Shown: positions 5,431 through 13,506, numbered from the stretch's first letter. The stretch: DNA of 64,000 nt from Armatimonadota bacterium (GCA_046292385.1 JBKBRF010000020.1:52090-116089); one strand, 5' to 3'. Made by a program: numbers and translations. Notes: generated from the letters alone by a model not told the origin.

Positions 5431-6600
5431 ATGCCGAAGTCAGCTCCTGTCGTTCAGAGGTTCTTTGCTCCCTGCCCGCGCGGGTTGGAGGAGTCGCTTT
5501 CGGAGGAGCTGGAGGGGCTGGGGGCGCGGGAGGTGGAGCGGGTGCCGGGCGGGGTGCACTTTCGGGGCGACTGGTCGGTCTGCTACCGGGTGAACCTGCA
5601 CAGCCGCATCGCCACCCGCGTCCTCTGGCGCGTGGCGCACGCACCGTACCGCGTCGAGCCGGAGGTCTACCGCGCCGCGTTCGACGCTCCCTGGCGCGAC
5701 TGGTTCGATCCGGCGCAGACGATCCGCGTCTACACGACGGGGGTGCAGTCGCCGCTGCGGAGCCTCGACTACATCACGGTCCACATCAAGGATGCCATCT
5801 GCGCCCGCTTCACCCAGGACTGCGGCGAGCGGCCGAGCGTAAACACCGAGGCACCGGACGTGCGAATCCACGCGTTCCTGGACGCGCGGACGGTGACGCT
5901 CTACCTCGACACCTCCGGCGAGCCGCTCTTCAAGCGCGGCTATCGCCGGACCACCACCGAGGCACCGCTGAAGGAAAACCTGGCGGCCGGCATCCTGCGC
6001 CTCACCGGCTGGCAGCCCGGGACGCCGCTCCTCGACCCGATGTGCGGCAGCGGCACGTTTCTGCTGGAGGCGGCGCAGATCGCGCTGAACATCGCGCCGG
6101 GAAGCGCGCGCCGGTTCGGGTTCGAGAAGCTGAAGTGGCATCAGCCGGCACTCTGGTCGCGCATCCAGGCGGACGCCCGTGCGAAGCAGCTTCCGCCCCG
6201 CCCGCTCCCGATCTACGGCTGCGATCTCCACAACGGGGAGCTGGAGGCGGCGCGCCGCAACCTGGCGGATGCCGGGCTGGGGGAGGTCGTGCGGCTCAAG
6301 CAGGCCGACATCCTGCGCGTCTCCGCGCCCGCCGAGAGCGGCGTGATGGTGACGAACCCGCCGTACGGCGTCCGCCTGGGGGAGCAGGAGGAGCTGGCGC
6401 GCTTCTACCCGCGCCTGGGCGACGCCCTGAAGCAGAACTTCGCGGGGTGGGACTGCTTCATCCTGAGCGCCGATCCGCGCCTGCCCAAGCTGATCCGCCT
6501 CGGCACGAGCCGCCGCATCCCGCTCTTCAACGGCGCGCTGGAGTGCCGCCTGCTGGAGTACCGCATGGTCGCGGGCCCTCGGAAAGGCCCGGCCGACTGA
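5431..6600 (+). CDS. rlmL: THUMP-domain class I SAM-dependent RNA methyltransferase (RlmL-like)
   Basis: CPRGLE, DTSGEPLFKRGYR, APLKENLAA, DPMCGSGT and TNPPYGVR motifs. Confidence 0.85.
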   Translation: MPKSAPVVQRFFAPCPRGLEESLSEELEGLGAREVERVPGGVHFRGDWSVCYRVNLHSRIATRVLWRVAHAPYRVEPEVYRAAFDAPWRDWFDPAQTIRVYTTGVQSPLRSLDYITVHIKDAICARFTQDCGERPSVNTEAPDVRIHAFLDARTVTLYLDTSGEPLFKRGYRRTTTEAPLKENLAAGILRLTGWQPGTPLLDPMCGSGTFLLEAAQIALNIAPGSARRFGFEKLKWHQPALWSRIQADARAKQLPPRPLPIYGCDLHNGELEAARRNLADAGLGEVVRLKQADILRVSAPAESGVMVTNPPYGVRLGEQEELARFYPRLGDALKQNFAGWDCFILSADPRLPKLIRLGTSRRIPLFNGALECRLLEYRMVAGPRKGPAD

Positions 6601-10776: not shown

Positions 10777-10848
10777 GGCGGCGTAGCCAAGTGGCTAAGG
10801 CAGGAGTCTGCAAAACTCCCATCAGCGGTTCGATTCCGCTCGCCGCCT
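10777..10848 (+). tRNA. tRNA-Cys (GCA); CCA not encoded
   Basis: Acceptor GGCGGCG/CGCCGCC, D arm GCCAAGTGGCTAAGGC, anticodon arm GGAGT-CTGCAAA-ACTCC, T loop GGTTCGATTCC, discriminator U. Confidence 0.96.
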
Positions 10849-10919: not shown

Positions 10920-11705
10920 TTAGCGGTTCTGGTTTCCGGCGCTGCGGCTCCGGCTGCTGGAGCCGGATTTACTGGGCGTGACCGACGCCGGGACCGGAAT
11001 CGGCCCGCGCGCTTCCGGGTCCAGCGCCGCCAGGATCGCCCCGCTCTCCGCCGGTCGGAAGCCGGCCGGCCATTTCGTGCTCGCGTTGTAGAGCGCGCTC
11101 TCCAGGATCGCGCCGGAAAGGATCGCCTCGGAGAGGTTGGCGCCGCGGAGGTCGGCGCCGGTCAGGTCTGCCTCGCTCAGGTCCGCCCGGGTCAGGGTGG
11201 CGCGCTCCAGGTTCGCGCCCTGCAGCTTCGCGCCGGTCAGGCGGGCGCGGTGCAGGCTCGCGCCGGTCAGCACCGCGTCCTTCAAGTCCGCGTCGGTCAG
11301 GATCGCCTCGCCCAGGATCGCCTGGTAGAGCTTCGCGTCGGTGAGATTGGCGCGGGCGAAGCGGGAGCGGGAGAGATTGGTGCGCTCCAGCACCGCCCGG
11401 GTCAGGTCCGCCTCCGAAAAGTCGGCGTCGGTTGCCAGCGATCCGGTCAGCACCGCCTCGGTCAGGATCGCGCGCGAGAGGTCGACCCGGGGCATCCGGA
11501 CGCTGATCAGAATCGCGCGGGTCAGGTCGGCGCCGGCGAGATTGCGGCCGCGCAGGTCGTCGAACGAGCGGTTCTGCTCCACAAAGCTCGGCAGCGCCGG
11601 CGGCGCCTGCTCCGGGAGCATGCGCTCTCCGGCGGCGGCAGACACCGCCGCTCCGGCGATCAGCAGTCCGCCGGCGAGCGCCGGCAGGGTCCGTCTCCAG
11701 GTCAT
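10920..11705 (-). CDS. Secreted pentapeptide repeat protein
   Basis: Signal peptide followed by many A(D/N)LxX repeats (ADLTR, ANLTD, ADLSE). Confidence 0.92.
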   Translation of the reverse strand: MTWRRTLPALAGGLLIAGAAVSAAAGERMLPEQAPPALPSFVEQNRSFDDLRGRNLAGADLTRAILISVRMPRVDLSRAILTEAVLTGSLATDADFSEADLTRAVLERTNLSRSRFARANLTDAKLYQAILGEAILTDADLKDAVLTGASLHRARLTGAKLQGANLERATLTRADLSEADLTGADLRGANLSEAILSGAILESALYNASTKWPAGFRPAESGAILAALDPEARGPIPVPASVTPSKSGSSSRSRSAGNQNR

Positions 11706-11720: not shown

Positions 11721-11957
11721 CTACTCGCTGCCGCTCTCCGCCTCTTCCACCGCGCGCATGGCGCCCTGGAAGCCGATCCGGCTGTGCGTGCCGTCGCAGA
11801 ACGGCTTCTTGACCGAGGCTCCGCAGCGGCAGAGCGCGATGACCGGCTTCTCCAGCCGAATCGTGTTCCCCTCGTGATCCACCAGCTCCACCGGTCCGCT
11901 CACGATGTAGGGGCCGTTCTCCCGGATGTCGATCCGCACGTCTGCCATCGTCTCCAC
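11721..11957 (-). CDS. CDGSH iron-sulfur domain protein
   Basis: RENGPYIV...ALCRCGASVKKPFCDGTH. Confidence 0.93.
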   Translation of the reverse strand: METMADVRIDIRENGPYIVSGPVELVDHEGNTIRLEKPVIALCRCGASVKKPFCDGTHSRIGFQGAMRAVEEAESGSE

Positions 11958-12060
11958 CTTTCACTACCGTCTGCTCGGCCCTCACGCAAGCGCCGCCAGT
12001 GGAATGTTACTACCTCCCGCGCGCGATTCCCCTCTGCGGCCGCCCTAGGTTGCGGCCGAC

Positions 12061-12424
12061 CCCGGTGGACGGTGCTGTCTACGTACCGCCCAGCCGCCCA
12101 CGTGGACGTCCGGAGGGGCAGCCAAAGGCTGAACCGGAGGGCGGCACTTGTGACCACCCCTTGGCCAAGGGGTGGTTGCTCGAAGGGTCGGGATTCAGCC
12201 CGTGAACCTTGCCTCTGGCGAGATCCGGACTGTGGCGCGGGAAGAGCAAGCCGGAGCGAACTCCCGGAGCGGCCCGTTAGCCCGAAGGGCGTGGGAGGGC
12301 CGCGGAGGGCAGAGTCGCGGGAGGGCTGAATTCCGGCACAAGGGCACGGGGTCGGACCCACGGGATGGTGGCTGCCTTCCGCATGCAGATCAAGCTCACG
12401 CCGAGGGAGACCCGCCCACCAGGA
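12061..12424 (+). ncRNA. Candidate structured RNA, family unassigned
   Basis: Nested long-range helices (12111-12124/12369-12381 and 12187-12201/12323-12337 with G-U pairs), a 24-bp perfect palindrome at 12153-12176 and several 7-bp stems. Confidence 0.45.
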
Positions 12425-12480
12425 AGAACCTGCTCTTCGGCGGAGCGGATCGGCGCGCTCCGCGTGAGAGGAGCACGTCC

Positions 12481-13506
12481 ATGAAGTCCCCCCGGTTTGC
12501 GGTACGGTGCGCGGCGCTCGCTGCCGCATGCTTCGCCTTCGCCGGCTGCACCGTCACCACCCCCGGCGCGGCCCCGCCTCCCGCGAATGCGCCCGCGGCC
12601 TCCGGAGGGGAGGAGACGGTCGTCGTGCCGGAGGCGCCTCCGGTGCCGGAAGAGGTAGTCCCGAGCGGCAAGCCGGACCGCCCGCTGACGGTGGGAGTCT
12701 CCCTGCTCACGCGCACGCACGAGTTCTACAAGGAGATGGAAGCGGCGATGCGGGAGGCGGCCGAGGAGCACGGGATCACGCTGCAGGTCCAGAGCGCCGA
12801 CATGGACCGGAGCCGGCAGCTCGAGCAGGTGCAGACGTTCCTCTCGCAGAAGGTCGACGCCATTATCCTCTGCCCGGTCGATAGCCAGAGCTCCGGCAGC
12901 CTGGTCCAGCTTGCCAACGAGCAGCGGGTGCCGGTCTTCACCGCGGACATCGCCAGCAAGGGCGGGGACGTCGTCTGCCACGTCGCCTCGAACAACGAGC
13001 AGGGCGGAGAGCTGGTGGGGGACTACCTGGCGGAAGCGCTCGGCGGGACGGGGGAGGTGGCGATCATTGACTACCCGGTCGTCACTTCCGTGCAGGACCG
13101 CGTCCGCGGCTTCAAGAAGGCGATCGCCCGCCACCCCGGGATCAAGATCGTCGCGCAGCCCGCGCCGGAGAAGCCGGAGCGTGCGGTCACCTTCCCCGTG
13201 GCGCAGGACCTCCTCCAGTCGCGCGGTCCGAGCCTGAAAGGCGTCTTCGGGATCAACGACGACTGCGCCCTCGCGGTGGTGCAGGCGGCCAGTGCCGCCG
13301 GGCGGGACGACCTGGTCGTGGTCGGCTTCGACGCCACGCCGGAGGCGCAGCAGTACATCCGCCAGGGCAGCGTCCTCAAGGCGGACGCGATGCAGTTCCC
13401 CGGCGTCATCGGCCGCAGCGTGGTCAGCGCCGTCGTGAAGAACGCCGCAGGCGAAGCGGTGCCGAAGACCGTCGCCATCCCTACGGGCCTGCTGCGGAGA
13501 AAGTAG
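12481..13506 (+). CDS. Sugar ABC transporter substrate-binding lipoprotein (RbsB/LacI-type periplasmic fold)
   Basis: Lipobox FAGC, VDAIILCPVD, ASNNEQGG, FGINDDCAL and VVGFDA; GAGGAG SD before the ATG at 12481. Confidence 0.9.
   Translation: MKSPRFAVRCAALAAACFAFAGCTVTTPGAAPPPANAPAASGGEETVVVPEAPPVPEEVVPSGKPDRPLTVGVSLLTRTHEFYKEMEAAMREAAEEHGITLQVQSADMDRSRQLEQVQTFLSQKVDAIILCPVDSQSSGSLVQLANEQRVPVFTADIASKGGDVVCHVASNNEQGGELVGDYLAEALGGTGEVAIIDYPVVTSVQDRVRGFKKAIARHPGIKIVAQPAPEKPERAVTFPVAQDLLQSRGPSLKGVFGINDDCALAVVQAASAAGRDDLVVVGFDATPEAQQYIRQGSVLKADAMQFPGVIGRSVVSAVVKNAAGEAVPKTVAIPTGLLRRK

Follow-up and report, generated by a model that had tools for sequence, protein, structure and literature searches.

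In an Armatimonadota bacterium, the 64,000-nucleotide (nt) stretch of DNA that constitutes the window analysed here (GCA_046292385.1 JBKBRF010000020.1:52090-116089) contains a spacer of 523 nt (11958-12480), which is flanked on its left by a CDGSH gene and on its right by a periplasmic sugar-binding protein gene. Both neighbours are confirmed as a preliminary description of the locus had named them (zf-CDGSH on the minus strand, Peripla_BP_4 on the plus strand). The spacer harbours one copy of a dispersed and structured repeat unit, which is found in more than a hundred places in the same genome and whose plus strand forms an elaborate fold. The copy lies on the same strand as the sugar-binding gene, the start codon of which is located about 100 nt past the last base of the core (12381). 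The features of the locus, with the helices of the unit labelled P1 to P8, are the following:

11721..11957, minus strand: CDGSH iron-sulfur protein gene (zf-CDGSH, PF09360, E 1.3e-20), left and divergent neighbour
12064..12072, plus strand: 5' arm of a closing stem claimed in the preliminary description (partner 12412-12420), outside the repeat unit, 8/9 pairs
12105..12381, plus strand: one copy of the dispersed structured repeat unit, core of about 277 nt, delimited by the limits of nhmmer/BLAST similarity and by column conservation
12105..12145, plus strand: P1, extended hairpin with an outer stem (12105-12111/12139-12145) and an inner stem (12115-12123/12127-12135)
12153..12176, plus strand: P2, perfect 24-nt palindromic hairpin, from the sequence and the pair types across 134 copies
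12177..12181, plus strand: 5' strand of P3, TGCTC (partner 12342-12346), a 5-bp helix with a conserved U-G pair (12180 with 12343)
12187..12201, plus strand: 5' strand of P4, a 15-bp helix (partner 12323-12337), 95.8% of cells paired
12202..12237, plus strand: invariant GTGA(A) junction followed by a hypervariable segment (12207-12235), from the conservation profile and the alignment
12238..12266, plus strand: P6, C-GGG/CCC-G closing pairs (12238-12241 with 12263-12266) around a variable hairpin, from the alignment
12269..12303, plus strand: P7 (12269-12275 with 12297-12303), enclosing an invariant GCTAG, P8 and a GTGRRA junction
12280..12290, plus strand: P8, hairpin with a GAA loop, inside P7
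12304..12322, plus strand: G-rich junction GGAGGGC-N5-CGCGGGAG, columns 95-100% identical in 134 copies
12323..12337, plus strand: 3' strand of P4, from covariation
12341..12352, plus strand: conserved AGGGCNCGGGGT block containing the 3' strand of P3 (12342-12346), from conservation and the alignment
12481..13506, plus strand: periplasmic sugar-binding protein gene (Peripla_BP_4, PF13407, E 1.3e-53), right neighbour

The genome from which the window is taken (G000; 7.04 Mb in 91 contigs, 69% G+C, 98.45% complete) contains a large population of such units. A DNA search recovered the central 270 nt in dozens of places, with 74-84% identity, and none of the 40 relatives searched by BLAST gave a match. 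The homologue search advocated in the preliminary description was performed with nhmmer and returned 104 matches with the single sequence and 154 with a profile, the latter corresponding to 134 full-length copies (at least 230 nt) and 20 fragments. Similarity between copies begins at about 12104-12105 and stops at about 12379-12381, with a weak family signal on to about 12391, and column conservation climbs at 12105 and fades beyond 12381. The structured region had initially been drawn at 12061-12424, of which the core at 12105-12381 is retained as the conserved unit. Since similarity is limited to about 12104-12381, the closing stem proposed at that time falls outside the unit; we place it at 12064-12072/12412-12420, where it pairs at 8/9 positions with one A-C. 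The same holds for the 5' arm GCCGCCC (12094-12100) of a proposed GCCGCCC/GGGCGGC stem, instead of which the family pairs 12105-12111 with 12139-12145. Inside the core, conservation is a mosaic in which blocks with 95-100% identity (GCTCGA, CAGCCCGTGA, GCGCGGG, CCCGGAGC, GCTAG, GTGAAA, GGAGGGC, CGCGGGAGGGC and AGGGCNCGGGG) are interleaved with stems and loops at 30-70%. The G-rich junction (12304-12322) shows no variation among 36 sequences taken from metagenomes and the own genome, and the segment 12207-12235 varies in both sequence and length from copy to copy.

The fold is strongly supported by covariation and is specific to the plus strand. A covariance model of the P3-P4 domain (R1, 188 positions), built from 18 copies of the own genome and 18 metagenome copies, provided an alignment of 73 matches (68 distinct) originating from the own genome, three related genomes (four genomes in all) and metagenomes. 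In this alignment, which was fitted to the model and hence leans towards structure, 94.8% of the 2061 cells are paired versus 70.6% (standard deviation (sd) 0.6) in shuffles, and 22 of the 31 pairs show compensatory changes on both sides among the 68 distinct sequences. The covariation score reaches 0.546 versus 0.127 in shuffles, none of 500 attaining the observed value, and it drops to 0.04-0.09 (at most 0.093) once the partners have been displaced by 1-3 columns. An independent MAFFT/RNAalifold run arrived at identical P3 and P4 helices, 12 pairs being compensatory. The covariation that the preliminary description had called for is thus strong, and its preference for the plus strand is borne out: since G-U cells (126) are far more frequent than A-C cells (32), the plus strand is the folding strand. 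Folding energy, also proposed there as a control, is marginal. The 364 nt of the plus strand reach -182.9 kcal/mol versus -171.3 (sd 5.6) for dinucleotide shuffles (z -2.08, 3/100 as low), and the minus strand behaves similarly (z -2.12, 2/100 as low), so that energy cannot tell the strands apart.

All the strings listed in the preliminary description are present in the sequence, and several of its helices are recovered in the family. The 15-bp helix P4 displays changes on both sides at 13 of its 15 pairs, and its cells in the 134 own copies are Watson-Crick in 1854 cases, G-U in 76, A-C in 9 and other in 71. Two or more pair types are found at 8/10 pairs of the palindrome P2, and all seven pairs of P7 (GCGGCCC/GGGCCGC) have changed on both sides. 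The local CAGCC-AAA-GGCTG hairpin belongs to P1, which is itself supported (79.4% of cells paired versus 68.6%, sd 0.7, in shuffles; 108 copies), with exchanges such as CG 50 and AU 46 at positions 15/51 or UA 48, AU 25, GC 7 and CG 5 at positions 28/38. This hairpin is interrupted by a symmetric GGA/GGA internal loop, ends here in an AAA loop and in most copies in G-N-A (C-GNA-G in 74/110), and is absent from one subfamily of copies. P8 ranges from 10 to 38 nt among copies and forms a hairpin in all of them; C-GNA-G is its predicted apex in 44/119, and most of the others contain this pentamer in their apical segment. In DNA, a GNA triloop with a C-G closing pair forms an unusually stable mini-hairpin. 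In P3, the U-G wobble is retained in 132/134 own copies and in 66/67 cells of the alignment A2, and the outermost pair changes freely (CG 25, AU 18, UA 9, UG 8, GC 5). P6 is paired in 97.4% of its cells and almost invariant, and therefore brings little covariation evidence.

Besides these local helices, a 13-bp long-range helix (12111-12124/12369-12381) had been proposed, together with a switch between mutually exclusive folds. The long-range helix is paired in 50.4% of cells, exactly as in shuffles (50.4%), and the alternative fold is therefore peculiar to this copy; it is not conserved in the family. A duplex-energy test of cognate versus non-cognate strands did not discriminate (P1, p 0.06; long-range helix, p 0.32). 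Two further hairpins drawn by eye in the 3' tail (P9 and P10) are not claimed, their minimum free energy (-14.1) being close to that of shuffles (-13.5, p 0.08).

The preliminary description had read the region as a riboswitch or another cis-acting leader of the sugar-binding lipoprotein gene downstream. Its strand, the distance of only about 100 nt to the start codon downstream and its high degree of structure would suit such a role, but the 133 other full-length copies have unrelated neighbours and a random orientation, the family does not conserve the alternative pairing, and no riboswitch of Rfam matches. Three probable orthologues of the sugar-binding gene (62-67% identity) are found in three related genomes, and the full covariance model, run with filters off, located no element near these or near four more distant homologues (8 loci with 410-1500 nt of flank upstream were scored, and outside the own genome the best value was 10 bits, E 0.24). 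Around the present copy, a scan returned no promoter-like site, no terminator-like site on the plus strand and one on the minus strand versus 0.3 expected. As far as sequence comparison goes, the leader reading is refuted and highly improbable, and the element is not a regulator of the adjacent gene.

In the same vein, no known family accounts for the unit. Rfam 15 at gathering score matched in the window only a tRNA-Cys, a search of 11900-12600 relaxed to E 10 only a chance-level Ms_IGR-2 (12.5 bits, E 6.9), and the scan of nine diverse copies returned nothing relevant, which answers the cmscan check suggested at the outset. No covariance match to RNase P, tmRNA, SRP, 6S, group I/II introns, OLE, GOLLD, ROOL or raiA was obtained in the window or in the nine copies, and ARAGORN predicted no tmRNA, in agreement with the poor fit to tmRNA, RNase P, SRP and 6S noticed by eye before. 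The earlier proposal of a large structured nucleic acid outside known families holds: covariation is strong, and Rfam offers no match at gathering score or with E relaxed to 1-10. That the segment codes for protein, or that it is an artefact of assembly, can be given practically no credit. Stop-free frames do exist on the minus strand of 40-47 of the 134 copies, as chance predicts at 69% G+C, but substitutions in stems are compensatory, core lengths are spread evenly modulo 3 (41/44/49) and conservation lacks a 3-base periodicity; the element is not coding. Against an artefact, contigs of four other metagenome runs, taken from three studies, contain this locus together with its element; they offer no informative empty site or joint.

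The placement of the copies was examined with a crude gene caller based on G+C position, which covered 77.5% of the genome, and none of the 134 copies overlaps a called gene. Orientation classes relative to the flanking genes are balanced (36/33/33/26). Solo copies are distributed among tandem (42), convergent (18) and divergent (14) spacers about as the abundance of these spacers predicts, those in tandem spacers being equally divided between sense (21) and antisense (21). No family is enriched among 206 neighbour proteins, the largest clusters (6 and 5) being the common oxidoreductases and ABC ATPases. Adjacent pairs are always head-to-head (27/27, a minus-strand copy followed by a plus-strand copy), the 80 other copies being solo, and the P2 anchors of paired copies are mostly separated by 142-149 nt. 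About 12 pairs are embedded in a composite of 840 nt with sharp boundaries, the tails of which measure about 57 nt on the left and about 120 nt on the right. The ends of this composite are not inverted copies of each other, and it has no terminal inverted repeats. By eye and without a null, CACAG precedes the left end in 10/12 cases and the right end is mostly GTAGTACAG(A); a fuzzy regular expression for the ends was too loose and gave many false matches, and these motifs therefore rest on the alignment of 12 sequences. Variants that lack one core, or a part of a core, keep both ends and correspond to internal-deletion derivatives, and only such derivatives turned up in a search for paralogous empty sites.

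Heptamer-like ACAGAGG/GGGACAC tracts abut both ends of several composites, for example at C10:72520-72545 and C8:52800-52830 of the own genome, and may be preferred insertion targets. Contig C40 carries eight copies, all of the same strand, inside 26 kb, and six of these are interspersed among prophage-like genes, to which they are antisense. The corresponding block (C40:17500-35000) carries terminase-, portal- and capsid-like genes on the plus strand, with the six element copies on the minus strand between them. A link between orientation and GC skew was considered and dropped, since the apparent bias (12/45, then 14/43) was largely due to a single contig with 8 clustered copies; counted by contig, the majorities are 14 versus 16, and the skew itself is weak (neighbouring windows of the same sign in 142/215).

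Outside the own genome, the R1 model matched in 4 of the 151 genomes of the phylum, all of them in the family of the window's bacterium (3 of its 6 other members), and in none of the 144 genomes outside that family. When 150 candidates were scored per genome, copies numbered 15 in G005, 8 in G006, 2 in G004, and 0 in both G001 and G002; G003 is the third family member in which the element was not found. Head-to-head pairs are likewise found in G005. G006 instead has same-strand tandem arrays of three units (C236:9085-11957 and C47:3682-4905; loci L065, L068 and L059), spaced by 430-630 nt and on C236 by as much as about 2 kb, which sets them apart from the pairs of the own genome and G005. An exact 26-base motif pattern, which occurs 92 times in the own genome, was found at only 3 loci in 185,579 GTDB species genomes, none of them matching the profile, and at 31 loci in JGI metagenomes, 27 of which do match. 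As the metagenome flanks are only 70-88% identical to the own genome, these loci come from related but different organisms. No viral contig contained the motif, and blastn gave no match in plasmids and phages.

For each of 68 copies, the nearest neighbour comes from the same source (68/68), identity being 0.67-0.82 within and 0.53-0.61 between sources. Among 18 foreign loci in which both the element and a flank match at 70 bits or more, some of which overlap or are one place in two samples, 13 have no copy within 4 kb in the own genome, and the remaining 5 have one that is placed elsewhere relative to the gene. Moreover, one pair of G005 is flanked by homologues of two genes that adjoin each other in the own genome with no element between them. 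The family is therefore old and restricted to one lineage, and it has repeatedly moved or been gained and lost.

On balance, we consider that the element is probably a very large REP/REPIN-like non-autonomous element, or one akin to miniature inverted-repeat transposable elements (MITEs), which is interspersed at high copy number and restricted to one lineage. The plus strand of the unit folds into P1-P8 with invariant purine-rich junctions. Concerning its mobility, we infer that a protein supplied in trans would recognise this folded single strand, and that the unit would spread in this way into intergenic DNA, often as head-to-head doublets. The leading candidate for this enzyme, which is unproven, would be an HUH Y1 transposase acting on single-stranded DNA. 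Hints in this direction are the absence from the own genome of any reverse transcriptase (PF00078) and TnpB domain (PF07282), the presence of Y1_Tnp genes and the C-GNA-G loops. Five Y1_Tnp matches are found there, two canonical (about 145-149 amino acids; C51:25920-26261 and C22:55627-55965) and three weaker and RAYT-like, and strong matches occur in 4/4 element-bearing genomes of the family versus 1/3 of those without the element. The strand-specific fold, the lack of terminal inverted repeats, the inverted doublets and the C-GNA-G loops resemble the logic of REPIN/RAYT and IS200/IS605 systems at a tenfold larger size.

Other enzymes were also considered. RRXRR (IscB, PF14239) was detected in 0/7 genomes of the family, but control genomes were silent too. 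The own genome has two IS110-family genes (on C91 and at C6:74.3-75.1 kb) with no profile match there, and an IS110 bridge RNA was rejected, as the element is not at the non-coding end of either gene. Small RAYT-like Y1 genes are located at C83:9340-10440, C22:55966-56548 and C40:62030-62940 of the own genome; the repeats that bracket them on both sides belong to other, shorter REP-like families with tens of copies in the genome, and they may constitute a separate REP/RAYT system. In G004, a Y1 gene (C207:3261-3599) and an element copy (6371-6561) lie about 3 kb apart on a short contig, which is the only such proximity seen.

Several observations weigh against a mobile, non-autonomous element of this kind. 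The flanks of the five Y1 genes contain no profile match to the element and display other REP-like repeats instead, no copy adjoins a transposase gene, no related autonomous insertion sequence with the same ends was found (although a multi-copy insertion sequence could be unassembled in a draft of 91 contigs), and neither a clear target duplication nor terminal inverted repeats were found. No multi-branched substrate of 280 nt is known for HUH enzymes, and with its nearly universal U-G wobble (132/134) and invariant purine-rich junctions the unit rather resembles a functional RNA. Young copies are few: median pairwise identity of the core is 65.5%, median nearest-neighbour identity is 84.1%, and 8/134 copies have a neighbour at 95% or more. 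Furthermore, nearest neighbours differ at 2.0% (168/8296) of conserved versus 26.1% (2628/10067) of variable columns. Nearest neighbours that were neutral after insertion should differ equally at all columns, and this contrast therefore argues that intact residents remain constrained. In addition, the 20 truncated copies, which were found by profile and are thereby biased towards conservation, match the consensus at 506/545 (92.8%) of conserved positions versus 12033/12219 (98.5%) in full-length copies (Fisher p 5e-14). Taken together, these observations suggest that resident copies are under purifying selection, which would not be predicted for a purely selfish element; rapid turnover with lost intermediates or position-specific mutation may also cause the column pattern.

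In another account, the copies would form a multi-copy gene family for a trans-acting structured RNA, in which selection would maintain each copy and the pairs would be divergent transcription units, for instance the scaffold of a ribonucleoprotein or a guide-like RNA with its specificity in the hypervariable hairpins. We regard this account as possible though rather unlikely. The complex fold with its invariant junctions and U-G wobble, the 13-fold lower divergence of conserved columns between nearest neighbours, the stronger decay of truncated copies, the conservation of the fold despite low copy numbers (2-15) in three related genomes, and the presence of hypervariable segments within a constant scaffold all speak for it, as does HEARO as a historical analogy. 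However, the repeated unit has no conserved promoter, a simple scan around the present copy found no promoter-like site and a single terminator-like site, on the minus strand (0.3 expected), the spacers between paired heads are short and G+C-rich, no protein gene is linked to the copies, and their placement differs in related genomes. The element could alternatively act in the host as DNA, with a folded or extruded strand bound at many intergenic sites by a nucleoid, topoisomerase or replication protein of the host, as for BIME/REP in E. coli. The strictly intergenic location (0/134 in called genes), an orientation independent of transcription, the signs of selection on residents and the loops resembling stable DNA hairpins fit with this idea, which nevertheless seems improbable to us: a fold specific to one strand, in which G-T is tolerated and A-C is not, is needless for the binding of duplex DNA, there is no reliable orientation link to the replication strand (the GC-skew signal is one cluster, contig majorities 14 versus 16), and the element was not found in 3/6 of the other family genomes.

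A broader view, to which we give a similarly low and tentative credence as to the trans-acting RNA, is that the copies represent a class of large structured RNA or single-stranded DNA without prior description, which would be multi-copy, selected at each copy and confined to one family of the phylum. Such a class might be the scaffold or guide of a system guided by RNA or by structure, in which the hypervariable hairpins would serve as modules of specificity, or a replicator propagating by a catalytic fold without reverse transcriptase.

Returning to the favoured reading of a REP/REPIN- or MITE-like element, REP/REPIN elements with their RAYT (Y1) transposases (PMC3116915; bioRxiv 10.1101/2021.07.10.451892) offer a first comparison. 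Like them, the present unit is intergenic, reaches a high copy number, folds as a single strand, behaves as a within-genome population and persists in one bacterial lineage; it also occurs as inverted doublets (27/27 head-to-head) plus singlets (80), in a genome that encodes Y1 transposase homologues. Unlike them, it measures about 280 nt with at least seven helices and invariant junctions, instead of a palindrome of 20-40 nt, it flanks no Y1 gene, and its copies are far more diverged (median pairwise identity 65.5%). HEARO (Rfam RF02033) was known as an orphan multi-copy RNA until its role as guide scaffold of IscB came to light. With HEARO, the IscB-IsrB omega RNA and other structured RNAs borne by IS200/IS605 elements, our element has in common a large size (200-300 nt), an intricate fold, the absence of terminal inverted repeats and the many copies per genome, of which many have no adjacent open reading frame. 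Seen by eye, an ACAG-type motif in the left flank of the tailed composite, and again at its right end, may recall the cleavage-site logic of the IS200/IS605 family. In contrast to HEARO and omega RNA, there is no Rfam match (window and nine copies), no TnpB domain in the own genome and RRXRR (IscB) in 0/7 family genomes with equally silent controls, and the folded cores, instead of abutting one end of the composite, face away from its centre. Finally, BOX, ERIC, Correia and the bcr elements of Bacillus cereus are structured interspersed repeats or MITEs. With this class (PMC3184786), the unit shares dispersed intergenic repeats, predicted stable folds, modular variants and deletion derivatives. 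It departs from these elements by its lack of terminal inverted repeats, its invariant unpaired blocks, its conservation across genera of one family, and a much stronger and more complex covariation. Full-text literature searches yielded no description of such an element, and the main text of 2026 preprints on language-model mining of non-coding elements has no Armatimonad- or multicopy terms. Among the structured interspersed repeats of bacteria, the element represents a new variant of unusual size and complexity.

For annotation, this means that the fold should not be called a riboswitch, and that about 134 intergenic regions of the genome share one explanation. Bacterial interspersed repeats are normally short hairpins; here, a multi-helix unit of 280 nt with invariant junctions has persisted across several genera and expanded to more than 100 copies in one genome, with signs of selection on residents. 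It offers a tractable case to ask how non-autonomous elements persist in lineages and whether some orphan large structured nucleic acids start as, or stay, mobile elements, a question that recalls the route of HEARO from orphan element to IscB guide scaffold.

Elsewhere in the window, the tRNA-Cys (GCA) gene at 10777-10848, which is the only Rfam or ARAGORN match, adjoins a pentapeptide-repeat protein gene on the minus strand (10920-11705; PF00805).

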